Program-made: the position numbers and the translations under genes
Assembly: GCA_036444215.1 (NCBI GenBank)
Contig: JAZGAA010000020.1
Coordinates: 1 to 39,946, forward strand
Length of the DNA stretch: 39,946 bases
Direction: 5' to 3'
Origin: Minisyncoccota bacterium
GTDB taxonomy: Bacteria; Patescibacteriota; Minisyncoccia; UBA6257; UBA9933
Shown here: one piece after another, positions 295 to 33,692 of the stretch
How the letters are laid out: every line of letters starts with the position of its first letter
Position numbering within the stretch: position 1 is the first letter of the stretch
The notes under the pieces: generated by a model
Databases searched by the model: none
What the model was told of the DNA's origin: nothing
Seen by the model: only the letters and a program-made list of their open reading frames with translations

Positions 295-3200
295 ATGAAA
301 GCTGGTAAATTATTATTAATTTTATCTTTGGCAGTAACTTTTGTTACGGTTTTTGCCAATTTTGTTTTTGCAGAGTCAGCGCTTTACCAGAGATTTGAAC
401 CGAATTCCACCTCAACAGTCGGAGAGTTTCTTTTTGATGATGATTATATTGCCACCACTACCCCGGCTTGCAATATTACGATCAGAGACACTTCAGGAAG
501 CGTATGGGTTAATAATGCTTCAATGTCAACCAGCTCTGATGGCTGGTATAGCTACACTTTTTATACTTCTTCAACTTTAGGTTTTTACCGCGGCATAATG
601 ACGTGCGGCACAAGCACTGACAGTAGTTTGATATCAACTGACAAATCGTTTTTTGTCGGTCCAACTTTTTATTCAACAACAACTATTGTTGAGACAATTT
701 GGTCTTACACTGGTTCAACTTTGGACACGGCTAACAATGCTATTGCTAAAGTTTGGAGCTATGCCGCTAGAAAATTAACTTCTAGACAAATTGCCACTAG
801 TTCAGAATATATTGCCGGTGTAACCACCTCTACTGCCATTGCTCAAGTGGCGGAAAAATCCGTGGTTGATGCTATTGAATACGACGTTGATTTAATTAGA
901 GGAGTAACTTTTGATTTCAGCGGGTTTGCTGATGTAGGTTCAAGTAGTTCTACTTTAGTTGATTCAGAATTAACACACCCGGATGACTATTGGAATAATT
1001 ATCGTTTGATAATGATGTCAGGTTCTAATTTCGGCGAAGAAAGAACGGTTTCCGATTTTGTTGCGTCTACAGATACCATAACTGTTTCTTCGCCGTTTAC
1101 AAACGCGATTTCAGCAAGCGATAAATACGTTTTATTTCATGAAGACAGATTAGTTTATCAGATTTGGAATTATAGCACCCGAACTTTGACCAGCTTCGGC
1201 ACTTTGGTAACGGATATTTGGAGTAATGCCAGTCGTACTATGACAGCTTTCGGTTCATTAGCTGCTGATGTCTGGAATAACACTTATGCTCCAACTAGAG
1301 GATTAAGTACTTCAACATTAACTTCCGGCTCCTTAGCCACTCTTACGAATTTAAATACTTTAGAGAGTAATATTAGGGGCGCTAGCTCAACTGATTTAAC
1401 TACTTTAGCTGGTTATGTTGATTCAGTAGAAGGTTATATTGGGATACCAACTGATACCGCGACTTCTACGTTATTCGGGGCTATTAAAGATGTAAGAACA
1501 AAATTAGATCAATTAGACACTTTAGAGACGAAAATTAATACATTAGATACGGTAGTTGACCTTATCCGCGCTTCGCAGTTGCTTGGTTATAATCTTGAAC
1601 TTTCTGATATTGGAGAGATTGTAGAGACGAAGAATTATCGGGCTAAATTAGTAATAACTGATTATGAAAGTAATCCAGTAGATGCTTCTTCTACGCCATC
1701 TATTGTTCTTTATGACGCTTTAAGAGCAACAGCTACCAGCACTACAATGACCAAGCTTTCTACTGGTGTGTATGAATTTGTTTATACGGTCGTCTCAGGA
1801 GCAGCCAATGGAACCTGGGAAACATTGGTTAGTGTTGATTTGGGCGGTTCGGCAAACGTCCAGTTGAACGACTATTGGGAAGTAGAGGGCTCGCCAGCCC
1901 AGGTAGTTATAAATAGCATGAGCGATACTACGGTTCCATCAATTTCTGCCAATACAACTATTTCCAATGAGGGCTCTACCGGCTATGAATATCAATATGA
2001 ATATTGCGTGGTGTCCACAGAGGCCAATCAATGTGGAGGAGGAGATGATGTAGCTTATGCTAATGCAGCCAAGTATCTTAATGCCGGACAAGATTGGACA
2101 ACTGATTTAGGATTAACTGTTTCCAATACGGGAGATTATTGGTTCAAAGTCGTGGTTTATTGGGGAAGCGAAACTTCAGGGGCATCCAGGACATTTACTG
2201 CTGGCGAAGAACCAGCCCCAGAAGCGCCATCAGGCGGCGGAGTTACGGTTGGAGTAAGCTTAAACACTATTTACAGCAAGCTTTTAGAAGTTCAAGAAGA
2301 ATTAGGATATCACGCCATACCGTCGCAAAATCTAGGAACTTCAGTTTATGAAACGCTTAGAGCTATGGCAGGAGATTTGGAAACAGTAGCCGGCGTTGAG
2401 GGTTGCGGATTGTGCAATATTTTCAAATTAGAACAAGAACAGGCAAATGACATAGATTATCTAAAAAACAAGCTTTCCGAACTTAGGGCTTTACTTGACG
2501 TTAATAAATTACTTATTGATAAAGCGGCGAATAAACCGGTTATTAAAACCTGGTTTGAATGGGGTTCTGTTGTTTTGAAAATGTTAGTAATTAATCCGTC
2601 TGTTTCTCAGTCTCAAATTATCCCATTTGAAGCGTATCTGCCAAGAGAAGTTAAACCGGAACATATTATTGACCGCGGAGATTTAATATTGGATTTTGAT
2701 GAAGAAAATAATCTCTGGTATGTTCATAAGGAAATAAGGTTAGCAGCTGGTGAGTCAGCAACCAAAAGAGTGGAAATTAAAGATATCTGGATAGTTCACG
2801 AAGAGGATATTGATTCTTTGAGAAACCAATTTGAAGAATTGATAAAGCCGTTAGAAAAGACAGCTTTCTTTGCCCAAGCTGTTACTTTGAAAAGCGATGC
2901 TGACAGGTTATTAGACGGAATTATTAGAAAACAAAATGAATACAAAGCCACACCGCAAGAGCACATTATAGCTTATCGGGAAAATCAAGAAAGCTTAAAT
3001 GCAATTGAGAGCAATCTTGAAGCATTACAAAAATTAGTAGCTGAAGAAAGCGGAGCCAGCAGGGCAATCGGAAGTTTGTTTGGAGTTTCTACAACAATGA
3101 CTTGGGCAATTGTAATTATTGTAATAGTTGGAATCGCGGTATTAATGATAATGCTTTACATAATGTTATTGCGGCACCAAGATTTGGAATATCATTTGGC

Positions 3201-3384
3201 CGGCGAAGAAGGATTGCAAAAAAATCCTCAGCGCGGCTTGCGTCACTCATTAATAAGACAGACGTCGAAAATTCACAGTCATTTTTCAACAGTTACCTTA
3301 AAAGTTATAATTAGATTTTTGATTATTATCGGAATTTTATCTTTGTTAATTTGGCTCTTAATAAAATTTACTCCAGGTTTTTAG
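295..3384 (+). CDS. Giant secreted/membrane-anchored surface protein of unknown family (1029 aa)
   Basis: Sec-type signal peptide (KLLLILSLAVTFVTVFANFVFA/ES). The body is Thr/Ser-rich with five W-x-[YN]...R-x-[LM]-T repeats. There is a coiled-coil-like segment and two C-terminal TM helices. I recognise no family. Confidence 0.75.
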   Translation: MKAGKLLLILSLAVTFVTVFANFVFAESALYQRFEPNSTSTVGEFLFDDDYIATTTPACNITIRDTSGSVWVNNASMSTSSDGWYSYTFYTSSTLGFYRGIMTCGTSTDSSLISTDKSFFVGPTFYSTTTIVETIWSYTGSTLDTANNAIAKVWSYAARKLTSRQIATSSEYIAGVTTSTAIAQVAEKSVVDAIEYDVDLIRGVTFDFSGFADVGSSSSTLVDSELTHPDDYWNNYRLIMMSGSNFGEERTVSDFVASTDTITVSSPFTNAISASDKYVLFHEDRLVYQIWNYSTRTLTSFGTLVTDIWSNASRTMTAFGSLAADVWNNTYAPTRGLSTSTLTSGSLATLTNLNTLESNIRGASSTDLTTLAGYVDSVEGYIGIPTDTATSTLFGAIKDVRTKLDQLDTLETKINTLDTVVDLIRASQLLGYNLELSDIGEIVETKNYRAKLVITDYESNPVDASSTPSIVLYDALRATATSTTMTKLSTGVYEFVYTVVSGAANGTWETLVSVDLGGSANVQLNDYWEVEGSPAQVVINSMSDTTVPSISANTTISNEGSTGYEYQYEYCVVSTEANQCGGGDDVAYANAAKYLNAGQDWTTDLGLTVSNTGDYWFKVVVYWGSETSGASRTFTAGEEPAPEAPSGGGVTVGVSLNTIYSKLLEVQEELGYHAIPSQNLGTSVYETLRAMAGDLETVAGVEGCGLCNIFKLEQEQANDIDYLKNKLSELRALLDVNKLLIDKAANKPVIKTWFEWGSVVLKMLVINPSVSQSQIIPFEAYLPREVKPEHIIDRGDLILDFDEENNLWYVHKEIRLAAGESATKRVEIKDIWIVHEEDIDSLRNQFEELIKPLEKTAFFAQAVTLKSDADRLLDGIIRKQNEYKATPQEHIIAYRENQESLNAIESNLEALQKLVAEESGASRAIGSLFGVSTTMTWAIVIIVIVGIAVLMIMLYIMLLRHQDLEYHLAGEEGLQKNPQRGLRHSLIRQTSKIHSHFSTVTLKVIIRFLIIIGILSLLIWLLIKFTPGF

Positions 3385-4616: not shown

Positions 4617-4892
4617 TTATTTAACAGCTTCTTTGAGCGCTTTACCAGCTCGAAATTTTGGTTTAATTGAAGCTGCAATTTGAATTTTTTCTCCAGTTTT
4701 TGGATTAACTCCCATTCGAGCAGCTCTTTTGGCAACTTTAAAAACGCCAAAACCGGGAATAGCTACTTCTTCTCCTTTTGATAATGTTTTGGTAATAATA
4801 TCAAATACAGCGTCAACAGTTTCAATTGCCTGTTTTTTAACTTCAATTCCAGCAGAAGTCATTAATGCTTCGGCTAATTCTACTTTTTTCAT
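4617..4892 (-). CDS. hup: DNA-binding protein HU
   Basis: 91 aa. It has GFGVFKV..R.ARMGVNPKTGEKIQI...KPKFRAGKALK, the canonical HU/IHF arm. Confidence 0.92.
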   Translation of the reverse strand: MKKVELAEALMTSAGIEVKKQAIETVDAVFDIITKTLSKGEEVAIPGFGVFKVAKRAARMGVNPKTGEKIQIAASIKPKFRAGKALKEAVK

Positions 4893-5036
4893 AATTTAAA
4901 TTAAAGATTAGTGATTTAATTCTCTCGACCTTTATCTTAACGTATATTAATTATAGTAGATTATATAGGAAAAATCTACTAAAAACAACCTTTAATCTGT
5001 TAACTAATTAAACTAGCTAACTAATCAACTAGTCAA

Positions 5037-6631: not shown

Positions 6632-8182
6632 ATGTCAAAACGAACCGTTATTTTAGCAATCTTAGATGGTTGGGGGATTGGCCGTCAGAATGAATCTAAC
6701 CCGATTTTCATAGCTAAACCATCAAATATTAATTATATTAAAAGCAATTTTCCAGCCGGCGCCCTTCAGGCCTCGGGGATTGCCGTTGGTCTTCCTTGGG
6801 GTGAAGAAGGGAACAGCGAGGTTGGACACTTAAATTTGGGAGGCGGTAAGATTATTTATCAAAATTATCCCCGGATTACTTTAACTATTAGAGACAGCAC
6901 TTTTTTTAAAAATAAGATATTAAGAGAAGTATTTGAACATGCCAAAAAAAATAATTCCCAAGTTAATTTTATTGGTCTTTTGAGCAAAGGGAATATCCAT
7001 TCTTCTTTTGAGCATTTAGAGGCCTTACTCAAATTTGCCGAGCAAGAAGGTTTATCCGGAAGAGTAAATCTTCATTTAATTACCGACGGCCGTGATAGCC
7101 CGCCCCAGTCAGCAATTGAGTTGTTGAGGCGTTTGCAAAAAGACAAATTAGCAAGTATTGCCGGACGTTACTATGCCATGGACCGTGATAAACATTGGGA
7201 CAGAACCAAAAAGGCCTATCAGGTTTTAGTTGGTGAAGGGTCCTCTATAGATGATTTTGAGAGCCATATTAAAAACACCTATCAGAAAAATCTTAATGAT
7301 GAGTATGTTGAACCGGTACTAATTGGTCCTGAGTCAAAAAATCGTGGCATTAAAGAAAACGACGCAGTGATTTTTTTTAATTTTCGTGAAGACCGGATGC
7401 GTCAAATTGTTGAGCCGTTTATTAACAGTAATTTTGCTCAATTTCCGATTAAAAATTTCTCCAATCTCCATATAGCGACAATGATTAGTTATGATGATAG
7501 ATTTAAGGCCCTGGTAATTTTTCAGTCAAAAAAAATAGAAAATCCTTTAAGTAGAGTTTTAGCTGACAATCAAAAAAGTCAATTTCGGGTGGCGGAAACC
7601 GAAAAATATGCCCACATTACTTATTTTTTTAACGGTCAAAAAGAAGTGCCGTTTAAAAATGAATATCGGATATTAATTCCCTCTCAAAAAGTAATTCGAT
7701 ATGATGAACATCCGGAAATGATGGCTGCTGAGATTACTAATCGGATAATTGGAGCTATTGAGGACAAGGGTTTTGATTTTATTTTGGCAAATTATGCCAA
7801 CCCGGATATGGTTGCCCACACCGGCAATTATCAAGCCGCTATTCAAGCGATTAAAGTAATTGACGAAGAAATCGGTAAAGTGAAGGAAGTTGTTTTGAAA
7901 CAAAACGCAATTTTAATTATTACCTCTGATCACGGCAATATTGAGAGAATGTTCAATCCATTAACCGGCGTCCCGGAAACCAAACACGACCCTAATCCGG
8001 TTCCAGTTTATTTAGTTGCTAAAGAATATGAGAGAAGCAAAAGTAAATCAGAAATTTATAAATCAGAAAGCAAAACAATTGGCATACTTGCTGATATAGC
8101 TCCGACAATTCTTGAGTTGATGGACATTCCTAAACCCAAAGAGATGACCGGCATAAGTTTGCTAAAGGAGTTAGTAATATGA
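6632..8182 (+). CDS. gpmI: 2,3-bisphosphoglycerate-independent phosphoglycerate mutase
   Basis: 516 aa. It has ILDGWG, NSEVGHLNLG, TDGRD, YFFNG, NPDMVAHTG and TSDHGN, the iPGM signature blocks. Confidence 0.92.
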   Translation: MSKRTVILAILDGWGIGRQNESNPIFIAKPSNINYIKSNFPAGALQASGIAVGLPWGEEGNSEVGHLNLGGGKIIYQNYPRITLTIRDSTFFKNKILREVFEHAKKNNSQVNFIGLLSKGNIHSSFEHLEALLKFAEQEGLSGRVNLHLITDGRDSPPQSAIELLRRLQKDKLASIAGRYYAMDRDKHWDRTKKAYQVLVGEGSSIDDFESHIKNTYQKNLNDEYVEPVLIGPESKNRGIKENDAVIFFNFREDRMRQIVEPFINSNFAQFPIKNFSNLHIATMISYDDRFKALVIFQSKKIENPLSRVLADNQKSQFRVAETEKYAHITYFFNGQKEVPFKNEYRILIPSQKVIRYDEHPEMMAAEITNRIIGAIEDKGFDFILANYANPDMVAHTGNYQAAIQAIKVIDEEIGKVKEVVLKQNAILIITSDHGNIERMFNPLTGVPETKHDPNPVPVYLVAKEYERSKSKSEIYKSESKTIGILADIAPTILELMDIPKPKEMTGISLLKELVI

Positions 8183-8194
8183 TAACATGTTAAT

Positions 8195-8560
8195 ATGAAG
8201 CTTTTTTCTAAACTAGTTTTTTTTCTTTTTTCTAATTTAGTGGCGCTTTTGGCAGCGGCTTATTTTGTTGAGGGTTTTGAGATTTCGCCGGGTTTTATAA
8301 ACTATCTTACTGTTGCCGCGATTTTGACTTTGATTAATGTCTTTATCAGACCTTTTATTAAACTTGTCTTAACTCCAATAATTATTTTAACTCTTGGATT
8401 AGGCATTATTTTAGTTAATGCTTTAACGCTTTATATTCTTGACATTTTTTCCAACGAGATTACTATTATTGGGCTCGCGGCTTTGGTTTACGCGACTTTA
8501 ATTGTAAGCGCCGTAAATATCTTGATTAATTTTTCGGCAAAAAGGATATATAAACAATGA
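8195..8560 (+). CDS. Small 4-TM membrane protein (holin-family-IV / DUF360-like)
   Basis: 121 aa and almost entirely hydrophobic helices. The layout is like YvlD/DUF360 proteins. The name does not imply a prophage. Confidence 0.5.
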   Translation: MKLFSKLVFFLFSNLVALLAAAYFVEGFEISPGFINYLTVAAILTLINVFIRPFIKLVLTPIIILTLGLGIILVNALTLYILDIFSNEITIIGLAALVYATLIVSAVNILINFSAKRIYKQ

Positions 8561-8798: not shown

Positions 8799-10475
8799 AT
8801 GTTTAACAGAATACCTCAAATTCTTAAATCTTTTTCTCGTTATGAGCGATATATTTTTTTGGCCTCTTTTTTGGTATTTATCATTTCTTCTATTTTTCTT
8901 TTAATTAAGTTTATAAATCAGAACACCTTTCTGGTGTCGGTTAGCGGCGGAGAATATAGAGAAGGAATAATCGGTCAGCCGACTTTTATTAACCCAGTTT
9001 TAGTCGGTAATAATGATTCTGACAGAGATTTAACCGAATTGATTTTTAGCGACCTCCTTGATTTAGCTGAGAGTTATAAAATGAATAGCAAAGGTGCAGT
9101 TTGGAACGTTCGGCTTAAAGAAAATGTTTTTTGGCATGATGGGAAAACCATTACCAGCGATGATGTAATTTTTACAGTTAGAACCATTCAGGACTTCGAT
9201 ACTCGCTCTCCGTTCTTTTCTAATTGGCAGGGGGTAGTTGCCGAACGGATTAGTGAACGGGAAGTAAAATTTATTTTATCAGCCCCCTATGCGTTTTTTG
9301 AAGGCACACTTAAAGAATTAAAACCAATTCCCAAACATCTTTTTAGCGATATTCCGGCTGCTAATCTCAAGCTTTCTAATTATAATCTTGAACCAATTGG
9401 CAGCGGGTCGTTTAAATTTGATTCCCTTCAGAAACGCCGTGACGGTTTTATTACCGATTATAAACTTATAAGAAACGAAAATTATTTTGGCCAAAAGCCA
9501 TATCTGGACCAGATAATTTTTAAATTTTTTCTCAATAATAATGAATTAATTGAGGCTTTTAATTCCGGAGTAATTGATGGTTTTGGAGGCGTTAATCCGA
9601 AAAGCTTAACGGGCATTAAACTTGATTATCAGGTCTTTAAGCTTATAATGCCCAGATATTATGCTGTTTTTTTTAATGGCAATTCTCAGCCGTTATTAAG
9701 CGAGAGAAATATCCGGCTGGCCTTAGATTTAGCTACTGATCGTCAGACGATTATTGAAGAAGTTTTTTTAAATCATGCCATAGCTGCTTTTGGTCCTTTA
9801 ATTCCATCAATGGAAGGGTATAGCCCCGATATTTTTCAGGAGAATTCTTTGGGGTTTGAATTTGAAGAGGCTAATCAACTTTTAGATAATGATGGATGGC
9901 AGGTTAATGATGAAGGAATTCGGGAGAAAGATTTTACCAATGGCAAAAAAGAGGAAATTTTAAAGTTAGAATTTAAATTGGTTGTTCCGGAAATACCGTT
10001 TTTAACTGAAACAGCAAATATTATTCAGGAAGATTGGGGAAAAATCGGCGTTAAGTTAGATTTAATAATTCTCCAGCCGTCTGACATTAACAATGAAATA
10101 ATTAAAACTCGCGACTATGAAATGATTTTATTCGGCAATATTTTCGGAAGAAACCCCGACCTTTTCTCTTTTTGGCATTCTTCGGAAAGATTTTATCCCG
10201 GGCTAAACCTGTCTCTTTATGATAATGAAGAGGCAGATGCTTTAATTGAGTCAATCAGAGAGAGTTTAAAAGAAGAAAGCCGACAGCGAAATTTAAATAA
10301 ACTTCAACTGTTAATTATAGGTGACCAGCCGGCAATCTTTCTTTATTCTCCGTTTTATTTCTATATCAGCAAAAACCAACTCGGTGGTTTTGAGGAAAAA
10401 TTTATTCCTCTACCAAGTGAGCGTTTTGAAAATATTGAGAGATGGTATTTGAAAACAGAGAGAAGATTCAGGTAA
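8799..10475 (+). CDS. Membrane-anchored ABC-type substrate-binding protein, family 5 (peptide/nickel type), orphan
   Basis: 558 aa with an N-terminal TM anchor. It has SBP_bac_5-like blocks (W.DG..ITS.DV.FT, NP.Y, FGW, LIGDQPAIFLY). No permease or ATPase gene is adjacent. Confidence 0.7.
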   Translation: MFNRIPQILKSFSRYERYIFLASFLVFIISSIFLLIKFINQNTFLVSVSGGEYREGIIGQPTFINPVLVGNNDSDRDLTELIFSDLLDLAESYKMNSKGAVWNVRLKENVFWHDGKTITSDDVIFTVRTIQDFDTRSPFFSNWQGVVAERISEREVKFILSAPYAFFEGTLKELKPIPKHLFSDIPAANLKLSNYNLEPIGSGSFKFDSLQKRRDGFITDYKLIRNENYFGQKPYLDQIIFKFFLNNNELIEAFNSGVIDGFGGVNPKSLTGIKLDYQVFKLIMPRYYAVFFNGNSQPLLSERNIRLALDLATDRQTIIEEVFLNHAIAAFGPLIPSMEGYSPDIFQENSLGFEFEEANQLLDNDGWQVNDEGIREKDFTNGKKEEILKLEFKLVVPEIPFLTETANIIQEDWGKIGVKLDLIILQPSDINNEIIKTRDYEMILFGNIFGRNPDLFSFWHSSERFYPGLNLSLYDNEEADALIESIRESLKEESRQRNLNKLQLLIIGDQPAIFLYSPFYFYISKNQLGGFEEKFIPLPSERFENIERWYLKTERRFR

Positions 10476-24792: not shown

Positions 24793-25749
24793 ATGCCCGA
24801 CATCAATAAACTTCTCAAAACTTATCTTGATTATTTGGAGATTGAAAAAAACCGTTCGCCAAAGACGCGGGAGAATTATGAACGGTATCTTAAGGTATTT
24901 ATAAATTTTGCCCCTCCTGGCGGCGGGCAAGGTAAAATCAGAACTGAAAAAGATATTACCATTGATAAAGTGCGGGATTTTCGACTTCATTTAGCGCGAG
25001 CCAAAACCTCGGATAGAGGAACTTTAAAAAAAACCACTCAGTCCTATTATGTGATTGCTTTAAGGAATTTTCTGAAATATTTAACTAAACAGGATTATAG
25101 TGTTTTATCACCTGATAAAATTGAACTGCCAAAAATTCCGACGAGGCAGATTGAAATTATTGAATATAAAGATTTAGAAAGGTTGCTTGAAGCGCCCAAA
25201 GCACAGGATTTGCGGACTTTGCGTGACAAAGCCATTCTGGAAACTTTTTTCTCTACTGGCTTGCGGATTTCCGAACTCTGCGGGCTTAACCGCTATCTTG
25301 ATTTAAATCGCGGCGAGATTTCAGTGCGCGGCAAAGGCGATAAATTGCGAATAGTTTTTCTTTCCGAACGCGCCAAGAGAGCGATTAAAAATTATTTAGA
25401 TAAAAGAACGGATACTGAAGAAGCGCTTTTTGTAAGTTTATCTTCCGCCAAAGGCGGATCCGCCTCGGGCGGAAAAAGCTCCTCTAAGATTATAGGTAGG
25501 ATTATCCCACGGGCAATTCAAAGATTAGTGAATTTTTACGCTCGAAAAGCCGGCATTCCTGACAAAATTACCCCGCATCAACTTCGTCACCAATTTGCCA
25601 CCGATCTTTTAATGGGCGGCGCTGATTTACGTTCTGTTCAGGAACTCTTAGGGCACGCTAATGTTTCCACTACTCAAATTTATACCCATCTTACCAACAA
25701 AGAACTTCGCGAAATCCACAAAACCTTCCACGCCAGAAGAAGAAGATAA
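24793..25749 (+). CDS. Tyrosine recombinase, XerC/XerD family
   Basis: 318 aa. It has an N-terminal SAM-like domain, then R...HQLRH.FAT.L...GADLR.VQELLGH....TTQIYTH. There is a Ser/Gly-rich insertion (SSAKGGSASGGKSSS). TATAAT at 24780-24785 lies 7 nt before the ATG. Confidence 0.85.
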   Translation: MPDINKLLKTYLDYLEIEKNRSPKTRENYERYLKVFINFAPPGGGQGKIRTEKDITIDKVRDFRLHLARAKTSDRGTLKKTTQSYYVIALRNFLKYLTKQDYSVLSPDKIELPKIPTRQIEIIEYKDLERLLEAPKAQDLRTLRDKAILETFFSTGLRISELCGLNRYLDLNRGEISVRGKGDKLRIVFLSERAKRAIKNYLDKRTDTEEALFVSLSSAKGGSASGGKSSSKIIGRIIPRAIQRLVNFYARKAGIPDKITPHQLRHQFATDLLMGGADLRSVQELLGHANVSTTQIYTHLTNKELREIHKTFHARRRR

Positions 25750-25874: not shown

Positions 25875-26003
25875 TACGATAACTTCAATAGATACCTTTG
25901 GTATTCTATGAAGCAAGTTTCAGGAATAAATCTTGAAACTTAACTACCTTAACAATTTTATATTGGATTGTATAGAAAGACAATCTGAATGGAGGATGAA
26001 AAA

Positions 26004-26924
26004 ATGCTTATACTCTATTTAATTTTCATTATTATCGTGTGTGGAGTGCTGCTATCGGATTCAATTGTGTTAATTCCAGCATACCATTTTGGAGTAGTGG
26101 AAAGATTCGGAAACCGAACTGGTCGAATTTTTCGCGAAGGGTTAGGATTTAAACTGCCTTTTATTGATAAGGTTCAGTTAATTTCAATGGAGCTGACAGA
26201 GACAGATGTTTCCGTTGTTTTCACAACAAAAGACAAGCTTCAATTAACTTGTTCTGGCTCTCTCCAGTACAGGTCATATCCTGAAATTAAAGACAAAGAA
26301 GGTAGAAATGTTTTTATCTCTATGTCTGAAAAAATTATTACTTCGGGTATAAGGGATGCTATTAAGGCAAAATTAGGAGCTTTAGGTGGCGTGAAAAATG
26401 GAGAAGACTTCATTGAAAATCGTCACGCGGTTGCTGATATAATTAACTGTTTCTTTAGATTTAAAAAGCTTCCTCATCGAGACCACGATCCTCAAGATTG
26501 CGGTGTTAAAAATTGTGATATTCCAGCCGGAGACATTTTAGCTGAAAATCTTCTGGAATTTTACAAGAAACATTGGGTAGTGGTTAAAGCTGAACTAGAC
26601 AAAGAGAAGGAAGAATTAACTGGTTCAGTAATAGAACAAAGATATGGAATTGATATCGAGTTCTACGCGCTATCAGACATCAGTTTTTCAGAAGAAACAC
26701 AAAAGGCCTTTGAAAAGGAAAAACAGGCAGAAGCCAGACAAAGGGCTTTTAAAATGAAGATTTCTATGGCCAAAGAGGTAAAAGATTTAGGAGCTTCTCC
26801 TCAGGTAGCTTTTAATGCCGCTGATGTTTCCCTTAATCCAGAAATTAAAAAGAAAGTGATTTCTGTTGAGGGAGAGGCTGGTATCTTGGGAGGCGTATTA
26901 AGCGGTATAAAGGGAGGTGATTGA
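26004..26924 (+). CDS. SPFH/band-7 (stomatin/prohibitin-like) domain membrane protein
   Basis: It has an N-terminal TM helix, then V.IP....GVVERFG....R...EGL.FK.PFID.V and a C-terminal Glu/Lys/Ala-rich coiled coil. ATG 26004 is preceded by GGAGGA. The ORF-track start is 25989. Confidence 0.75.
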   Translation: MLILYLIFIIIVCGVLLSDSIVLIPAYHFGVVERFGNRTGRIFREGLGFKLPFIDKVQLISMELTETDVSVVFTTKDKLQLTCSGSLQYRSYPEIKDKEGRNVFISMSEKIITSGIRDAIKAKLGALGGVKNGEDFIENRHAVADIINCFFRFKKLPHRDHDPQDCGVKNCDIPAGDILAENLLEFYKKHWVVVKAELDKEKEELTGSVIEQRYGIDIEFYALSDISFSEETQKAFEKEKQAEARQRAFKMKISMAKEVKDLGASPQVAFNAADVSLNPEIKKKVISVEGEAGILGGVLSGIKGGD

Positions 26925-27385
26925 TGATGGCGGAAATTGCAACGCACAGAAAAGGAATAGCTAAACCACCTAAATTCATTTTGGTTATAATATGGTCTAT
27001 AATAGCTATCGTTGTTCTCGTGACATTCGGTATATGGTTGCATACATTGCATACAACTGACAAAAAGGAAGCTTCTTCTCAGCCGGTGGCGATGATGGCG
27101 GATTATCCGATTTGCGCAGGAGGAAGTCATGACTTTTCAAGGACAATTGCTCCAGGGGAAGTTAAGGTTGATTTCCGTCCAGATTGCAGAACAGAAGTAA
27201 CTTTACCTCCAGGAGTAGTTTTTAGAACAGATCCATCTGCTGATATAGAAATTATTTTCATTGATGGTTCTCAATATGTAGATGGTCCTGGTTATCGGGT
27301 ATGGTACGGTCTTAAACGCGGAATTTTTGAGATGCACGGCATTAAAAAAGCAGGCATCTTAAAAATCACTTTTGAGAAAAGTTAA
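26924..27385 (+). CDS. Single-TM protein of unknown function, translationally coupled to the SPFH gene
   Basis: There is a TGATG stop/start overlap, with GGAGGTGA upstream. It has a TM helix (FILVIIWSIIAIVVLVTFGIWL) and a beta-rich domain of about 100 aa with three Cys. Confidence 0.6.
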   Translation: MMAEIATHRKGIAKPPKFILVIIWSIIAIVVLVTFGIWLHTLHTTDKKEASSQPVAMMADYPICAGGSHDFSRTIAPGEVKVDFRPDCRTEVTLPPGVVFRTDPSADIEIIFIDGSQYVDGPGYRVWYGLKRGIFEMHGIKKAGILKITFEKS

Positions 27386-27391
27386 ACACAA

Positions 27392-27433
27392 ACCCCGTTA
27401 GATGAATAAATTCTATCTAACGGGGTATTTTTT
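27392..27433. terminator. Bidirectional rho-independent terminator (SPFH operon / pilin array convergence)
   Basis: ACCCCGTTAGAT-gaataaattct-ATCTAACGGGGT followed by ATTTTTTT. On the other strand it is followed by TTTGTGTTT. Confidence 0.75.
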
Positions 27434-27458
27434 TCTAAAAATTTTCTTAAATTGATTT

Positions 27459-27815
27459 TTATCCACCGGTTTCCAAAAAGGTTCTGATAATTGTTTGGAA
27501 GCCAACTGCTAAGAGGGCAACAATAATGGCAACTGCCGCATAAATTATCTGGTTTTTAGCTTTCTTGACTTTTTCTTCATCACCACCGGCAGTTAAATAA
27601 GTAAATGCCGATAAGATAATATATAGAACAGCGATAATAAAGAAGATAATATAAACCCATCTGACAATATTATCAATTACATCAACCATGCCGGTAACTG
27701 TCGTAACCGGAGATGGAGGAATTGGTGCTGCTGCTCCAACAAGAGCTGCGTTTCCCAATAAAGTTGATAAACCAATTAAAGCGCCGACTGAAATTTTTGT
27801 TTTAAGTTTTTGCAT
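27459..27815 (-). CDS. VirB2/TrbC-like small secreted two-helix protein, paralog P1
   Basis: It has a signal peptide ending in a VGAAA-like motif, then helix - YLTAGGDEEKVKKAKNQIIYA - helix. Confidence 0.65.
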   Translation of the reverse strand: MQKLKTKISVGALIGLSTLLGNAALVGAAAPIPPSPVTTVTGMVDVIDNIVRWVYIIFFIIAVLYIILSAFTYLTAGGDEEKVKKAKNQIIYAAVAIIVALLAVGFQTIIRTFLETGG

Positions 27816-27824
27816 AATAATGTA

Positions 27825-27915
27825 ATGCTAATATACTAATTCATGCTAATTATACTAATGAATACGAATTATTAGTATCTATTCGTATCATTAGTACGCA
27901 TTTGTATATTGGTAT
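27825..27915. repeat. 5+5 iterated-word palindrome upstream of P1
   Basis: The left half has ATGCTAAT / ATACTAAT / ATGCTAAT / ATACTAAT / ATACGAAT. The right half has ATTAGTAT / ATTCGTAT / ATTAGTAC / ATTTGTAT / ATTGGTAT. Confidence 0.65.
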
Positions 27916-27977
27916 CACGCTTAATCTCTTTCGACCTTTGGAAATTGATTATATTATATATTATTAATTACTAAATT

Positions 27978-28319
27978 TTAACCCCCAGTCATTAAAAATG
28001 TTTCTATTATTTGTACCGCTCCTATGGCAATTAGAGTAACAGCAATAGCAATGGCTGCATAGATTATCTGATGATGAGCTTTCTTAACTTTTTCAACATC
28101 GCCGGCAGCGGTTAAATAAGTAAATGCCGCGAAGATAATAAATAAAATAGCTAAAGTAAGAGCAAGCCAGTAGGTTATTGTTAAAATACTGTCAAGTATA
28201 CCTACTAATTCCTCGACACTTGAAGCCGGAGCATCTGGAAGACCAGTAGTATCCGTAAATTGGTCATAAGTAACAGCGGCTTTGGCTGTTAAAAAAGATA
28301 AGATATTTGATATTTGCAT
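27978..28319 (-). CDS. VirB2/TrbC-like paralog P2, with a truncated signal-peptide region
   Basis: The C-terminal half is about three-quarters identical to P3 by eye. The N-terminus MQISNILSFLTAKAA lacks the charged n-region and most of the h-region seen in P3. Confidence 0.6.
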   Translation of the reverse strand: MQISNILSFLTAKAAVTYDQFTDTTGLPDAPASSVEELVGILDSILTITYWLALTLAILFIIFAAFTYLTAAGDVEKVKKAHHQIIYAAIAIAVTLIAIGAVQIIETFLMTGG

Positions 28320-28333
28320 GTTAAGAATTTAAG

Positions 28334-28720
28334 TTAAAGTATACTTTTAACTATTTGCACTGCCCCAACAGATATTAATGTAACAGCGATAGCAATAAGC
28401 GCATAAATTATTTGATGATGAGCTTTTTTGATTTTTTCAGTGTCGCCAGCAGCGCCGAGATAATTAATAGCAGCAAATATAATAAATAGAATAGCCAAAC
28501 AAAGAGCAGTTATATAAGTTACTACTAAAATACTGTCTATTATTCCTACTAATCCACCAACATCTTGAACAGGAGACGCTGGAAGCCCAAGGTCTCCAGC
28601 GCTTGGTATTTTTCCGGGCGTAATAGCAGCTTTAGTTGTTAAAAAAGCTGGACTAATTAAAATTATCAATATAATTATAAAGCCAATTTTACTCCCTGCT
28701 CTTTTGATGCTGATATTCAT
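28334..28720 (-). CDS. VirB2/TrbC-like paralog P3
   Basis: It has a signal peptide (KIGFIIILIILISPAFLTTKAA), then helix - YLGAAGDTEKIKKAHHQIIYA - helix. Confidence 0.65.
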   Translation of the reverse strand: MNISIKRAGSKIGFIIILIILISPAFLTTKAAITPGKIPSAGDLGLPASPVQDVGGLVGIIDSILVVTYITALCLAILFIIFAAINYLGAAGDTEKIKKAHHQIIYALIAIAVTLISVGAVQIVKSIL

Positions 28721-28727
28721 AATATTT

Positions 28728-29054
28728 TTAATCTAAAATACTTTCGATTATTTTGACAGCGCCTGTTGAAATTAAAGCAATAGCAATTGCAATAGCAGCA
28801 TAAAGTATTTGATTGCGGGCTGTTTTAATTTTTTCAGGATCTGCTTTAGCTGTTAAAAAATGGAAAGCTGCGATAATGATAAAAATGATGGCTACAATAA
28901 AAAATGCAGTAAACAGATATTTAGCAATTTTATTTATTACTCTTATAACGTCATCAGGGCTTTCAACTGCTGAATAAGAAATTAATGGAGCGGTGAGTAA
29001 AATTATTAAACCGCCTAAAATTAATAATGATGTAATTTTTGTTAGTTTATTCAT
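28728..29054 (-). CDS. VirB2/TrbC-like paralog P4
   Basis: It has a signal peptide (ITSLLILGGLIILLTAPLISYSA), then helix - FLTAKADPEKIKTARNQILYA - helix. Confidence 0.65.
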   Translation of the reverse strand: MNKLTKITSLLILGGLIILLTAPLISYSAVESPDDVIRVINKIAKYLFTAFFIVAIIFIIIAAFHFLTAKADPEKIKTARNQILYAAIAIAIALISTGAVKIIESILD

Positions 29055-29067
29055 ATTTCTATATTAT

Positions 29068-29460
29068 TTATTCTAATAGTTTTTCTATTATAGCAACAAT
29101 TCCCCAGGCAGACAAGATTATAGCATAGCCAATAACAGAATACAAAATAGTGTGTCTGCCGGTTTTGACTTTTTCCGGATTGTCGCCGGCAGTTAAAATC
29201 TGGAAACCACCGATTAAAATCATAATTGCTAAAATCGGAGCTCCGATTTTAATTAAATAATTAACAATATTTTTAAGAATATCGGTAATATTATCAGCCC
29301 CAAGGGGGTTGGGAAGTGTAACGCCGGGAGTTTGACCAACTCCAGCTGATAAAGCCACGCTAATTATTAGAGATAATCCTAAAAATAACACCACACTAAA
29401 TAAGTATAGAGTTTTTTTATTATTTAATTTTTTTTGCTGAGATTTCATAATTATATTCAA
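29068..29460 (-). CDS. VirB2/TrbC-like paralog P5
   Basis: It has a signal peptide (LYLFSVVLFLGLSLIISVALSA), then helix - ILTAGDNPEKVKTGRHTILYS - helix. Confidence 0.65.
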   Translation of the reverse strand: MNIIMKSQQKKLNNKKTLYLFSVVLFLGLSLIISVALSAGVGQTPGVTLPNPLGADNITDILKNIVNYLIKIGAPILAIMILIGGFQILTAGDNPEKVKTGRHTILYSVIGYAIILSAWGIVAIIEKLLE

Positions 29461-29465
29461 TATTG

Positions 29466-29528
29466 CGAGGTCGGACTTCCTACGAATAATAATAAAGCAT
29501 TAATCAATATTTGGGAAGTCCGACCTCG
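29466..29528 (-). promoter_or_regulatory. Perfect 15-bp GC-rich hairpin between P6 and P5
   Basis: CGAGGTCGGACTTCC (29466-29480) pairs with GGAAGTCCGACCTCG (29514-29528). The loop is AT-rich and about 33 nt. There is no U-tract on the coding (minus) strand. Confidence 0.6.
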
Positions 29529-29532
29529 AATA

Positions 29533-29940
29533 TCAGCAACTAATCTGGTTCCATGGACCGATATCCGCCTGCAAGACGACTTTGATTATTGTATCAATTA
29601 TCAACCAAGAACCAAGAGCAATAATAATTCCGATTACTGCCGATTTTATGATATCCCGGCCATGTTTTACCCGTTCAGGCGAACCGCCGGCCGTCATTAT
29701 CACAAACCCGCCCCAGATGATAAGAGCTACAGCGATTACGATTACAATCTTAACAAGAAAATCTATAATATTCGCGATTAATTTGCCTAAATCGCACCAA
29801 GTGCATGGGTCAGTAGTGCTTGTGCCGCAAGGAACAAGTCCAGCAGCATCTGCTACCAAAGGTAGCAGCACGAAACTAATACTAAATAAAAATACTAAAC
29901 CGATGCAAAAGATTTTTATTTTATTTTTTTGCGTCTTCAT
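29533..29940 (-). CDS. VirB2/TrbC-like paralog P6, Cys-rich subtype
   Basis: It has a signal peptide ending VADAA, then GLVPCGTSTTDPCTWCDLGKL, then helix - IMTAGGSPERVKHGRDIIKSA - helix, and a C-terminal Cys. Confidence 0.7.
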   Translation of the reverse strand: MKTQKNKIKIFCIGLVFLFSISFVLLPLVADAAGLVPCGTSTTDPCTWCDLGKLIANIIDFLVKIVIVIAVALIIWGGFVIMTAGGSPERVKHGRDIIKSAVIGIIIALGSWLIIDTIIKVVLQADIGPWNQISC

Positions 29941-29949
29941 AATTAGTGT

Positions 29950-31230
29950 TTATTTCATCAACGATGAAATTTCGTTTTCTGCCTGCTCTAACGCTTTATT
30001 GGAAACTAATCTGCCATTTAATATTGATTCTATCATATCAGAAAAGATTTGTTTAACTGCGGTGCTGTCGGGCTGGTACCAGGAGCGGGCAGTAAGGGCT
30101 TGTTGGGCAAAAACTCCTAAATCCGGGTCATTAAGGTATTGATTAACAAGCGTTCTAAGAGCCGGCGGATGCCCGGAACTTTCTAAATATTCCAAAGAAC
30201 TTTCGGAATTAGTTGTTAGGAATAAAATAAAATCCCAAGCCCAAGCCGGACTTTGACTTTTATTAGAAACCGCCAAACCCCAATAATTAGCATAATTTAT
30301 TGGTTGAGAAAGATTGAACTGCAGCATCAGCGCTGTTCCTAAATTTAAAAACGGATTTTTAGCTTTTATTTGGGGAATTGCCTCAGCATAATTGAAAATC
30401 ATATCCACTGTTCCTTGGCTGAAAGCGTCAATGGAATATTGGAAATTATCATTCCAAGTGTAAAAAGGACCGGCTGGATTGGCGAATTGAACATAAAAGT
30501 TTAACGCTTCAAGCCCTCGGTCGCCAAAATCCGCTTGGGAGTATTGCTGATTAATCATTTGAGTATCAAATTGGAGCATTAAAAGAGAAAGTAAGTCAGT
30601 TGCCTTACTGATGCTTTTTTCCGAACCGCCGATAGCTGCGGCGGCATGAGCTATTTGATTGGCTTGGTTTTTTGTTCTAAGCCGTGGAATTAAATTCTGA
30701 AATTCATACCATTGAGTTGGCGGCAGGGCAACAGCTTTGGCGTCAAAAGCATCTTTATTATATAAAAACGCTAAAGTATCAATATAAAGAGGCAAACTAT
30801 AAATAATGCCGTTGGAAGTTAAATCTTGTTCAGCCACGGTCGGAAACATTTGGCGAAAATTAGCAAGAGGAATTTGTGATTCGTTTGCTGCCACAATTTT
30901 GTCAAAATGTTTTGGCAACCATGTATTATGTAACATCAAAATATCCGGTCCCCGGCCAGCCGCTAAAGCGTTAATTAAATTATTTTCATAGGAATTGGCA
31001 TTGATTTGGCGGTAGTTAATTCTGACTTCCGGCCGAAATTGCATATAACTCTCTAACGAGGATTGGAAGTTTTTATAATCTTCAATACCCCAAAATGTCA
31101 ATTCGATTTGCTGGCCTCCGCCTCCGCCGCCATTACCGTCTTGCCGGAATAAGACAAACATTAATACCACTAACAGAATTATTGCTGCAGCGATGAAGAT
31201 TATGATTATTTGGGATTTAGTAAAAGACAT
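29950..31230 (-). CDS. Membrane-anchored extracellular solute-binding protein, family 1 (sugar-type), orphan
   Basis: 426 aa with an N-terminal TM anchor and a poly-Gly linker (GNGGGGGGQQ). It has SBP_bac_1-like blocks (LTFWG, GPDILMLHN.W). No permease or ATPase is adjacent. Confidence 0.7.
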   Translation of the reverse strand: MSFTKSQIIIIFIAAAIILLVVLMFVLFRQDGNGGGGGGQQIELTFWGIEDYKNFQSSLESYMQFRPEVRINYRQINANSYENNLINALAAGRGPDILMLHNTWLPKHFDKIVAANESQIPLANFRQMFPTVAEQDLTSNGIIYSLPLYIDTLAFLYNKDAFDAKAVALPPTQWYEFQNLIPRLRTKNQANQIAHAAAAIGGSEKSISKATDLLSLLMLQFDTQMINQQYSQADFGDRGLEALNFYVQFANPAGPFYTWNDNFQYSIDAFSQGTVDMIFNYAEAIPQIKAKNPFLNLGTALMLQFNLSQPINYANYWGLAVSNKSQSPAWAWDFILFLTTNSESSLEYLESSGHPPALRTLVNQYLNDPDLGVFAQQALTARSWYQPDSTAVKQIFSDMIESILNGRLVSNKALEQAENEISSLMK

Positions 31231-31241
31231 ATATTATTTCA

Positions 31242-33692
31242 TTATAAAATTACTATTCCTATAATTCTGTCTTTCTCTTTTAATTTCATTATTTTTACGC
31301 CGCTTGTAGCCCGGCCAGCAGTTCTGATATTGGAAATTTTAGTTCTGATAATTTGTCCTTTTGCCGAAAGAGCTAAAAGTTCTTCTTCGTCTGTAATAAT
31401 TCGACTTGCCACAATCAGTCCGGTTTTTGAAGTAATTTTAGCGGTTTTAATTCCTTGGCCTCCACGGCTTTGAATTTTGTATTCTTTAAGCAACGTTTGT
31501 TTAGCAAACCCGTTTTCGGTTACTATTAGCAGTTTGGAATTTGTAATTTGAGATTTGGAGCTTACGTTTATTATATCAAGCCCAGCTACAAAGTCATCTT
31601 TCTTGAGTTTAATCGCCTTAACACCAGCAGCGGTTCTTCCCATTTGCCGCAATTGAGATTCTTTAAATCTTATTGCCTGCCCCAGTTTAGTTGCCAAAAT
31701 CACGCCGTCTTTTCCTGAAGAAAGCTTAGCCCATTTTAATCTGTCGTTTTTGGACAGATTAATGGCAATAATTCCGTTTCTTCTAACATTAGAGAATTCT
31801 TTAAGGGGTGTTTTCTTTATCAACCCATTCCGAGTATTCATTATAAGAAAAGCTGTTTGCAGGGCATTATCCGAATAGGTAACTATAGCCGTAATGCTTT
31901 CACCGGTTGGAATATCTAAAAAGTTTTGGATTAATTTGCCTTTGGCAGTCCGCGAGCCTGCAGGAATTTCATAAACTTTGGTTTGAAAAACTTTACCGCG
32001 GTCAGTAAAGAATAAAATATTATTGTGAGTATTGGCGGAAATAAAGTGAGTAAGAAAATCTTCTTCACCGACATCAGAGCCAATTAATCCTTTTCCGCCT
32101 CGGCGTTGGGCTTTAAAATTGGTTGGAGCCACTCGTTTAATGTACCCGCTTTTTGAAAGAGTAATAATTGTTTCTTCTTTAGGTATCAGGTCTTCTTCTT
32201 GGAATTCTTTAAGACCGCCGGCAACTAATTTAGTTCGCCGTTCATCTCCGTATTTATCTTTAATTTCCGATAATTCATCCTTAATAATTTTAAGAATTTT
32301 TTGTTTGCTTTTTAGAATTATTTCCAATTCATTAATAAGTTTTTTCTTTTCTTTTAATTCATCTTCAATTTTCTGCCGTTCCAAAGCTGCCAAAGTGCGG
32401 AGTTTCATTTCCAGAATTGCCGTTGCTTGAATACCGGTAAGCTTGAAATTCTTTACCAGTTTTTGATGGGCTTCTTCGGTGGTTTTTGATTTTTTAATAA
32501 CGGCAATTATTTTATCAATAACAGAAAGCGCCTTAGACAACCCTTCCAAGATGTGGGCACGTTCTTTTGTTTTGGTCAGTTCAAATTCCGTTCGGCGTCG
32601 CACCACTTCCTGACGATGTTCTATGTGGGCATGGAGAATATCTTTAACCGACATTATCTGCGGCTGAATCCCTTGGTTTAAAGCCAGCATATTTACGTGA
32701 AAATCTTTTTGAAAATCGGTATGCTTGAAAAGCTGATTAAGTATTTTTTGCGGAGAAACGTCATTTTTTAAATCAATAACAATTCTAATTCCTTCTTTAC
32801 CGCTTTCGTCTCGGACATCGCGAATGCCTTCTATTTTTTTGTTTTGAACTAATTCGGCAATTTTAATAACTAATTCTGATTTGTTTACTTGGTAAGGGAT
32901 TTCAGTAACAACGATATTAAATTGACCGCTTCGCTTCTCAATAATTTCTGTTTTTGCCCGGAGAGTAATCGGTCCCCGACCGGAAATATAGGCGTCAGTA
33001 ATCGCTTTTTTGTTGTAAATAATTCCGCCGGTTGGAAAATCCGGACCTTGAATAAATTTCATTAGGTCTTCAGTTGGAGATTTTGGGTTATCTATTAAAT
33101 ATAAAATAGCGTTTGTTATTTCGGTTAGATTATTCGGCGGAATATTGGTTGCCATTCCTACGGCAATTCCCATTGAGCCATTAAGTAAGAGATTTGGCAG
33201 TTTTGCCGGCAGAACTTTTGGTTCCTGATGGGCGCCGTCATAATTCGGCTTCCAGTCAACAGTTTCTTTTTCTATATTAATGAGCAATTCTTCGGCTATT
33301 TTGGAAAGTTTGGCTTCGGTGTAGCGGTAGGCGGCCGCGGAATCTCCGTCTTGGCTGCCAAAATTACCCTGCCCTTGAATTAGCGGGTATCTTAACGAAA
33401 AATCCTGAGCCATTCTAACTAAAGCGTCATAAACCGCTACGTCGCCGTGAGGATGATATTTCCCTAATACATTACCTATAATATTGGCAGATTTTCTAAA
33501 TTTTGCAGAATAATTAAGTCCATCTTCCCAAGCTGCCCATAAAATTCGGCGATGAACCGGTTTTAAGCCATCCCGAACATCCGGCAGAGCCCGGGAAACA
33601 ATCACGGACATGGCGTAATCTAAATATGATTCCTGAAGTTCAGTAGTAATCTCTCGCTTTTCTATTTTTTGAGGTTTTTTATTTGTGTCCAT
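31242..33692 (-). CDS. gyrA: DNA gyrase subunit A
   Basis: 816 aa. It has [31 protein letters not shown] and [10 protein letters not shown] (active-site Tyr context), plus a C-terminal beta-pinwheel repeat region. Confidence 0.95.

Follow-up and report, generated by a model that had tools for sequence, protein, structure and literature searches.

A 39,946-nucleotide (nt) stretch of DNA from a Minisyncoccota bacterium (GenBank assembly GCA_036444215.1, contig JAZGAA010000020.1; hereafter the window) carries on its minus strand six tandem genes for small VirB2/TrbC-like pilins, named P6 to P1 in the order of transcription. They follow gyrA and a gene for a membrane-anchored, sugar-type solute-binding protein (SBP). 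The SBP gene is the obligate first gene of the pilin operon, and the operon is chromosomal, vertically inherited and placed behind gyrA. With its order of gyrA, SBP, a lead pilin of cysteine type (P6) and plain pilins, it probably supplies subunits to a type IV secretion system (T4SS) that is encoded elsewhere in the genome, for structures of host contact.

The linkage between SBP and pilins was determined from both sides. One genome per species was scanned with an alignment of the pilins, which gave 76 array loci, nearly all in metagenome-assembled genomes of Patescibacteria, and the large neighbours of these arrays were clustered to rank recurrent partners. The most common neighbour was the SBP family (23 of 76 loci), always directly upstream and on the same strand, followed by GyrA (13 loci); the linkage to the SBP persisted where the other neighbours were entirely different. 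In the reverse test, metagenomes were scanned with an alignment of diverse SBPs, so that loci were picked through the SBP alone; this yielded 80 loci (663 kb) with SBPs that were 38-58% identical. A pilin gene was found directly 3' of the SBP gene and on the same strand in all 72 loci having at least 450 nt of downstream sequence, with gaps between the SBP and the first pilin of -41 to +224 nt across the SBP-selected loci (9 nt in the window). The pilin hidden Markov model (HMM) matched 1 of 1045 upstream open reading frames (ORFs) of these loci, versus 226 of 636 same-strand ORFs downstream. GyrA was located upstream in 64 of the 80 loci. Three homologous loci chosen through the SBP (L079-L081) all contained GyrA, the SBP, 3-6 genes of the pilin family PF18895, a convergent Band_7 gene and an Xer-type recombinase gene, and in two of them the end of the SBP gene overlaps the start of the first pilin gene, by 4 nt in one and 11 nt in the other. 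The initial annotation, made from the sequence alone, had treated the SBP as an orphan neighbour; it is instead the tightest-linked partner of the array.

The SBP is a family-1, MalE-like protein (Table 1). Its matches to solved sugar-binding proteins in PDB include 5ci5 (E 1e-15) and MalE-like proteins (about 1e-10), and its N-terminus consists of a transmembrane (TM) helix followed by a poly-Gly linker. In the SBP_bac_1 and SBP_bac_8 domains, in the matches to sugar SBPs and in the membrane tether, which is as in monoderms, it resembles the MalE-like cluster-B/family-1 SBPs. It differs from the binding proteins of ATP-binding cassette (ABC) importers in having no adjacent permease and ATPase genes, here or in the 80 SBP-selected loci, where the pilins are the invariable downstream partners. 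ORFs resembling an ABC ATPase (Walker A plus LSGGQ) were found neither in these 80 loci nor near the SBP of the window; the only large Walker-A proteins of the 80 loci were FtsH. VirB4, the type IV coupling protein (T4CP), PrgI and VirB6-like proteins gave no match in the same 663 kb. In the related locus L004 the SBP is conserved at 79%, versus 56-64% for P4-P6.

Further genes were observed around the SBP-pilin operon of relatives. A gene for a 182-aa S-adenosylmethionine-dependent methyltransferase lies between gyrA and the SBP gene in 26 of the 80 SBP-selected loci (e.g., L156, 5420-5968) and is absent from the window. In L033, L037, L038, L042-L045, L055, L067, L070 and L071 the operon is located amid envelope-glycan genes, with NTP_transferase (GalU-like by eye), a Polysacc_synt flippase, a Wzy_C ligase-like protein and GT2 as neighbours; a 548-aa multi-TM protein without Pfam match also occurs beside these glycan-embedded operons. 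Wzy_C is also a domain of pilin O-oligosaccharyltransferases. The mature N-termini of the plain pilins are rich in Ser, Thr and Pro, for which reason glycosylation of the pilins is a possibility.

The six minus-strand ORFs that the initial annotation had placed within 27459-29940 are all present there and are paralogous (P2-P6 versus P1, 34-50% identity), and the VirB2/TrbC-like family and hairpin layout attributed to them holds. Each comprises a hydrophobic helix, a loop of the form A-G-[GD]-x-x-E-[KR]-[VI]-K and a second hydrophobic helix. The accession PF18895, given in the initial annotation for the T4SS_pilin family, was correct: all six pilins match it, five of them above the gathering cut-off of 26.6 bits, P3 (22.3 bits) being below. 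The cut-off of the TrbC/VirB2 family PF04956 (27.9 bits) is passed by P5 alone (37.5 bits, profile positions 2-97 of 98), with P4 (21.5 bits) and P1 (16.7 bits) below it and P2, P3 and P6 not listed. All six pilins match the NCBIfam model NF045849 (Mbov_0395 pilin-like conjugal transfer protein) with 24.1-34.9 bits (E 2e-5 to 9e-9); the alignments span nearly the full 80-position model, and none reaches its equivalog cut-off of 40 bits. The similarity to NF045849 fits the MPF-FATA ancestry that has been proposed for the VirB4 of the phylum.

According to hydropathy and charge analysis, P1, P3, P4, P5 and P6 begin with a charged n-region and a hydrophobic segment of signal type, followed by two long helices. 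The N-terminus of P2 is neither charged nor hydrophobic and thus gives no convincing signal peptide, so that the earlier description of a signal peptide plus two helices in every copy stands for five of the six pilins and fails for P2. AlphaFold2 models show a hairpin of helices 40-74 and 80-116 in P1 and of helices 48-83 and 88-123 in P6, with predicted local distance difference test (pLDDT) values of 82-90 over the hairpin. The gaps between the pilin genes, from P6 to P1, are 72-84, 13, 7, 14 and 162 nt; a spacing of 7-14 nt, previously given for most genes, applies to three of the five. The first of these gaps depends on the start of P5, for which an ATG at 29448 (126 aa), the form called in public data, is probably the true start; the TTG start gives 130 aa, and an exact-sequence look-up of that form returned no match.

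P6 combines a signal peptide, the motif AGLVPCG...CxWC, the helix-loop-helix hairpin and the C-terminus GPWNQISC. Its ortholog is the first gene after the SBP gene in every syntenic relative. The first pilin has at least three Cys in 22 of 26 genome loci and at least two in 72 of 74 metagenome loci (median 4), versus a median of 0 in later pilins. Two subtypes of pilin had been distinguished by the initial annotation; the Cys-type does exist, but it is not merely a subtype, rather a position-specific lead gene kept across lineages, and the Cys-free copies number four instead of five, since P3 carries one Cys. The P6 subfamily (47 database matches) is characterized by an invariant V-P-C-G, a second invariant Cys, C-x-[WF]-C and a terminal G-P-W-N-x-x-x-C. 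Covariation of the Cys residues was scored over 36 sequences: C38, C46 and W130 are invariant, whereas C49 and C135 are jointly present in 33 and jointly missing in 3, and are never lost singly. The same joint loss of the equivalents of C49 and C135 was seen in L080, and L008 is also without the C-terminal Cys. Because both termini of the hairpin are predicted to face outward, disulfides C38-C46 and C49-C135 are likely to staple the two tails of P6. TrbC and VirB2 undergo head-to-tail cyclisation, to which a staple of this kind may be functionally analogous.

In some relatives the lead pilin reaches 1208 aa with 32 Cys and is fused to adhesin-like, Ig-like domains (He_PIG, PKD or fn3) and to SLT, a lytic transglycosylase domain of VirB1 type. 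A 555-aa protein in Saccharibacteria arrays (L022, L024, L026, L028 and L030, about 6700-8380) consists of a PF18895 hairpin, Big_2 Ig-like domains and a DUF4886-like region and is a parallel to those lead pilins of SBP-linked arrays that bear ectodomains. In L006 (8347-12094; Ca. Wolfebacteria GW2011_GWA1_44_24) an inversion has divided the operon between the lead pilin and the plain ones: the genes for the SBP and the Cys-type lead pilin lie on one strand, those for the other five pilins on the opposite strand.

The order of the pilins is conserved as well. Most of the 76 related genome loci contain 2-13 pilin genes when counted with an iterated HMM. In the syntenic relatives the P6 ortholog is gene #1, P5 is usually #2 and P1 is last or near-last. 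The closest relatives of P1 are 85% (L003), 81% (L004), 74% (L005) and 63% (L006) identical, and no other type of pilin is as well conserved as the P1-type or has as many database homologs. The P4 ortholog of L003 (85% identical) occupies position #3. P2 and P3 correspond to one and the same gene of L003 (#4), which indicates a lineage-specific duplication; the two are 63% identical in an alignment that begins at P3 residue 25, and P2 is the duplicate that lost its signal peptide. Synteny is kept across relatives with GyrA 63-83% identical, in line with the chromosomally fixed module, other than a conjugation locus, that had been proposed initially. The pilins diverge faster than GyrA in L004 and L005 (P5 50-56% and P6 58-62%, versus 78-83% for GyrA). 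The paralogs are not interchangeable and probably have fixed, different roles, which are considered below.

Two signals flank P1 (Table 1). The leader motif CAAAGGTCGAAAG precedes the last pilin also in L003, L004 and L005 and was otherwise found, in 1.9 Mb of fetched DNA, only upstream of the HU-like gene of the window. Behind the operon, a hairpin plus T-run likewise follows the last pilin in L003 and L005. P1 is proposed as the candidate major subunit because it is of the best conserved and most numerous type and has its own promoter-like leader and terminator. The RNA hairpin between P6 and P5 has a delta-G of -34.9 kcal/mol (z -6.9; 0 of 200 shuffles equally stable) and no T-run. Its inverted repeat occurs as a single copy in the window and is not conserved in L003-L005; a repeated or mobile element was accordingly rejected as an explanation for it. 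Attenuation, stabilisation of the mRNA or a processing site would be candidate roles. An Rfam scan of 27200-31400 yielded only chance matches below threshold.

The leader motif was also noted outside the operon. At 4893-4945 (minus strand) the form AAAGGTCGAGAG, which has TATAAT-like boxes ahead of it and is shared with the P1-type pilin genes of the clade, precedes a 91-aa gene (4617-4892) publicly annotated as Bac_DNA_binding (HU-like); it has 5 occurrences in the 1.9 Mb. Possibly the motif is the mark of a class of transcripts that these organisms express strongly.

Table 1. Position and properties of the pilin operon, its sequence signals and its flanking genes in the window
Feature	Position	Strand	Remarks
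Tyrosine recombinase (Xer-type)	24793-25749		1.7 kb from array
SPFH/Band_7 gene and 154-aa ORF	25989-27385	plus	4-nt overlap; convergent with array
Intrinsic-terminator-like hairpin CCCCGTTAGA...TCTAACGGGG and T-run	27384-27425	minus	fold z -3.3; closes operon
P1, last pilin	27459-27815	minus	118 aa; PF18895 48.1 bits
Promoter-like site TTAAAA-17-TATAAT and leader motif CAAAGGTCGAAAG	27928-27981	minus	162-nt spacer before P1; promoter scan 10/12 matches
P2, duplicate of P3, degraded N-terminal signal peptide	27978-28319	minus	113 aa; PF18895 32.7 bits
P3, plain pilin, one of lineage-specific duplicate pair	28334-28720	minus	128 aa; PF18895 22.3 bits
P4, plain pilin	28728-29054	minus	108 aa; PF18895 31.4 bits
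P5, plain pilin, most TrbC/VirB2-like paralog	29068-29460	minus	130 aa; PF18895 54.6 bits
Perfect 14-bp inverted repeat, GAGGTCGGACTTCC arms	29467-29527	minus	RNA hairpin between P6 and P5
P6, lead pilin, Cys-type	29533-29940	minus	135 aa; PF18895 37.6 bits
SBP, membrane-anchored family-1 MalE-like, sugar-type	29950-31230	minus	SBP_bac_8 and SBP_bac_1, both E about 1e-22
gyrA	31242-33692	minus	DNA_topoisoIV and DNA_gyraseA_C (Pfam); ends 11 nt before SBP start

The position of the array 3' of gyrA and the SBP gene and convergent with an SPFH/Band_7 gene pair was confirmed. GyrA lies upstream of the SBP in L003-L006, L008, L009 and L079-L081; gyrA is a conserved synteny anchor, possibly co-transcribed with the SBP gene. 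A Band_7 gene and a small unassigned gene recur 3' of the arrays in L079-L081, and Band_7 was found in at least 19 metagenome loci; their presence is read as synteny. The 154-aa ORF beside the Band_7 gene has no Pfam or NCBIfam match. Besides SPFH/Band_7, SBP, GyrA and the Xer-type recombinase, the window encodes an ECF sigma factor, RNase Y, iPGM, an SBP_bac_5 protein, RNase J, a class-I tRNA synthetase, ClpP, H+-PPase, NusA, PNPase, S15, S1 and FtsH, and its GC content reveals no island.

As stated in the initial annotation, no T4SS gene, relaxase or prepilin peptidase is present in the window: a Pfam scan of its ORFs of at least 90 aa detected no domain of VirB4, VirB6, VirB8-11, VirD4, relaxase or prepilin peptidase. 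A complete T4SS just outside the window, which had been named as the finding that would make this an ordinary conjugation locus, was not encountered in the 4.8 kb beyond the window start (identical public contig), where TatA/TatC and nucleotidyltransferase genes and no T4SS genes are located.

Two other genes of the window deserve mention. The plus-strand ORF at 295-3384 (1029 aa) has no Pfam match. Its product, by appearance a large protein of surface or adhesin-like type, has a signal peptide, a body rich in Ser and Thr and two C-terminal hydrophobic anchors; the ORF directly follows TatC/TatA (outside the window; L002, 3731-4791) and precedes the ECF sigma factor and a 171-aa ORF. That it might be a hidden VirB4 or VirB6 was considered and rejected on account of its surface-type architecture and the lack of a Walker A motif and of any Pfam match. 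A second solute-binding protein (SBP_bac_5, 558 aa; 8799-10475, plus strand), which again has no ABC permease or ATPase gene beside it, is found in synteny in L079 and L080. The source lineage may be characterized in general by orphan SBPs.

Arrays of this kind are already described for the phylum. Quinonero-Coronel et al. (2025; PMC12102498) reported 441 VirB2 arrays of 2-11 genes from 383 assemblies with a mean identity of 25%, most abundant in Microgenomatia and Saccharimonadia; the pilins were near virB4 in only 1135 of 1948 assemblies, and the SBP and gyrA are unmentioned. P1-P6 form a tandem array in the sense of that study (at least two PF18895/VirB2 genes of low pairwise identity); the 63% identity of P2 and P3 exceeds the array maximum of 54% given there, which fits a recent duplication. 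The three points that the initial annotation had listed as unusual (six diverged copies, no secretion machinery nearby and the setting of the array) are hence normal for the phylum, where diverged arrays are often without a nearby virB4. Its statement that the function of such arrays is experimentally uncharacterised is outdated: the pilin series of Ca. Southlakia epibionticum was essential by transposon sequencing (Wang et al. 2023; PMC10633639), and PF18895 genes were among the most highly expressed unknown genes of methanogen-associated Patescibacteria (PMC10936435). A 2025 review (PMC12857230) describes the S. epibionticum cluster as six VirB2-like pilins with conserved structure and divergent sequence.

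The S. epibionticum array (SEML1_0006-0019), which has six genes as here, the TM7x 'Sec secreted array' and the arrays of PMC12102498 share with the window tandem divergent PF18895 genes on a monoderm chromosome from the candidate phyla radiation (CPR) and the absence of a relaxase. Saccharibacteria arrays are located inside or next to a T4SS cluster, those of L022-L030 with PrgI and membrane-protein genes and no SBP, whereas the locus here is separated from any T4SS gene by over 10 kb and is joined to a sugar-type SBP and a probably Cys-stapled lead pilin behind gyrA. The array is not set among VirB3, VirB4, VirB6 and VirB8-like genes as in S. epibionticum, its neighbours being gyrA, SBP, SPFH and Xer, and these surroundings are the same in all relatives of the source clade. 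With TrbC/VirB2 (PF04956; RP4 TrbC, Ti VirB2) the pilins have in common a long signal peptide, two hydrophobic helices and a short charged loop; they differ in the monoderm host, in the lack of adjacent VirB3-B11 and of a TraF-type cyclase, and in that five of the six remain below the PF04956 cut-off. The Mbov_0395 family of Mycoplasma integrative and conjugative elements (ICEs) is alike in its monoderm, MPF-FATA-type context, a class related to the VirB4 of Patescibacteria, but the Mbov_0395 gene sits on a mobile ICE and the genes here lie in tandem on the chromosome. The minor-pilin and pseudopilin clusters of type IV pili and of the type II secretion system (T2SS) likewise consist of tandem small paralogs in fixed order, with one abundant major subunit and specialised subunits of low copy number. 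Their likeness to the array is organisational only: fold and biogenesis (class III signal peptide, prepilin peptidase) are unrelated, and there is no homology. No report linking an SBP to VirB2-like arrays was found in the literature search, which is absence of evidence only. Within the literature searched, four traits appear to be undescribed: the obligate SBP partner, the lead pilin with its probable Cys staple and, in some relatives, its SLT or Ig-like domains, the fixed order of the subunits and the gyrA synteny.

Under the assignment of the operon to a distal T4SS, as the Paceibacteria-type pilin locus of the Patescibacteria system, the pilins would be inserted through Sec and their signal peptides cleaved, with the possible exception of P2, to give helix-loop-helix hairpins in the membrane with both ends outside and the Lys-rich loop in the cytoplasm. 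A machine of VirB4/TrsD/VirB6 type, encoded elsewhere in the genome, would pull out the hairpins and build from them a surface filament or conduit for contact with the host cell. P6, its tails stapled by disulfides, could act as a low-copy initiator, tip or anchor subunit, and P1, with its own promoter-like leader and terminator, would be the candidate for the major subunit. The membrane-tethered SBP would be a partner of the pilins and not of an ABC transporter, most likely binding a conserved glycan or metabolite at the contact site. The genomes that contain L006, L008 and L009 are on record as having VirB4, yet at more than 10 kb from their arrays, and Wolfebacteria-labelled genomes contain a compact pilin-VirB4-TrsD core. 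Several observations weigh against this assignment. In the 40 kb plus 4.8 kb of the source genome that are visible, no T4SS component is seen. The genome of Uhrbacteria L044 (RIFCSPHIGHO2_02_FULL_46_47) has a nine-gene SBP-linked array and is VirB4-negative in Table S1 of PMC12102498, an absence that is unproven in a draft assembly, and the proportion of VirB4-positive array genomes (3 of 4) does not discriminate from the base rate of 80% of the assemblies of the phylum. The SBP is far better conserved than the pilins, which suits a housekeeping ligand and is no sign of a physical link between the SBP and a filament. A Foldseek search of the P1 model against PDB gave no match below E 1.9 and retrieved generic helical hairpins, with the Aeropyrum pernix conjugation pilus 8dfu at rank 37 (template modelling score 0.61) and ATP synthase subunit c scoring equally; the profile of the six paralogs had no significant match among PDB sequences either (8dft at E 1.1). 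Reviews report no VirB2-type pilus visualised on Patescibacteria and mention only a 'potential to elaborate conjugative pili' (PMC12857230).

A rival reading is an envelope device independent of any T4SS, in which the SBP and the two-helix proteins act as an uptake channel or sensor and never form a pilus. The invariable SBP-pilin linkage, the lack of VirB4, VirB6, PrgI and ABC ATPase-like ORFs in the 663 kb, the listing of L044 and the generic nature of the hairpin fold, which is as close to ATP synthase subunit c as to pilins, would all suit such a device. It is nevertheless regarded as unlikely, since the profile similarity is specific to the conjugative pilin families PF18895, PF04956 and NF045849, the SLT fusion of the lead pilin mirrors the VirB1-VirB2 pairing of T4SS, and VirB4 is present in 80% of the assemblies of the phylum; moreover, homologous arrays in Saccharibacteria adjoin PrgI, and that of S. 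epibionticum is essential and lies inside a T4SS cluster. A related proposal, rated as quite improbable, joins SBP and array into a binding-protein-dependent device for contact and uptake, in which the SBP would hand a host glycan or metabolite to a VirB2-like conduit nucleated by the Cys-stapled lead subunit, which is transglycosylase-armed in relatives. If true, a T4SS pilus module would have been repurposed for nutrient import in bacteria unable to make building blocks, perhaps without VirB4.

Variation of VirB2 paralogs has been proposed for Bartonella and Anaplasma, and the idea is voiced for the arrays in PMC12102498. Applied to the window, the six genes would be a cassette of interchangeable major pilins for antigenic or host-range variation, with the SBP merely co-transcribed. 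The low identity of P5 and P6 relative to GyrA in L004 and L005, the range of copy number between relatives (3 to 7) and the recent duplication of P2 and P3 agree with this, but the deep positional orthology, with the Cys-type always first and the P1-type last, the differences in conserved motifs and Cys content between subtypes and the separate promoter-like leader before P1 argue for fixed, different roles; no recombination or switching element was found, and the sole inverted repeat is lineage-specific. Such a cassette is accordingly doubtful. That the window holds part of an ordinary conjugation or mobile-element locus, with the remaining machinery just outside, is suggested by the tyrosine recombinase gene 1.7 kb from the array and is considered extremely improbable: a conjugative element was rejected as a candidate because the Pfam domains of relaxase, coupling protein and VirB4 are all missing from the window, these genes are likewise absent from the 4.8 kb upstream, a T4SS ATPase was found in none of the 80 related loci, the housekeeping flanks are in conserved synteny that includes the Xer-type recombinase, and there is no GC island. 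The supply of subunits to a distal T4SS thus remains the preferred reading.

Before that of Patescibacteria, no T4SS had been shown to be essential for its own carrier bacterium. Over a large part of the phylum (Paceibacteria, ABY1-type genomes), its pilins are firmly tied, within one operon, to a well-conserved sugar-type SBP and to a specialised lead subunit that is probably stapled by disulfides. The operon offers a soluble, expressible SBP, a candidate major subunit (P1), a candidate tip or initiator (P6) and a disulfide prediction. Thousands of CPR genomes contain "orphan SBP" genes that are named as parts of ABC transporters and are due for relabelling.

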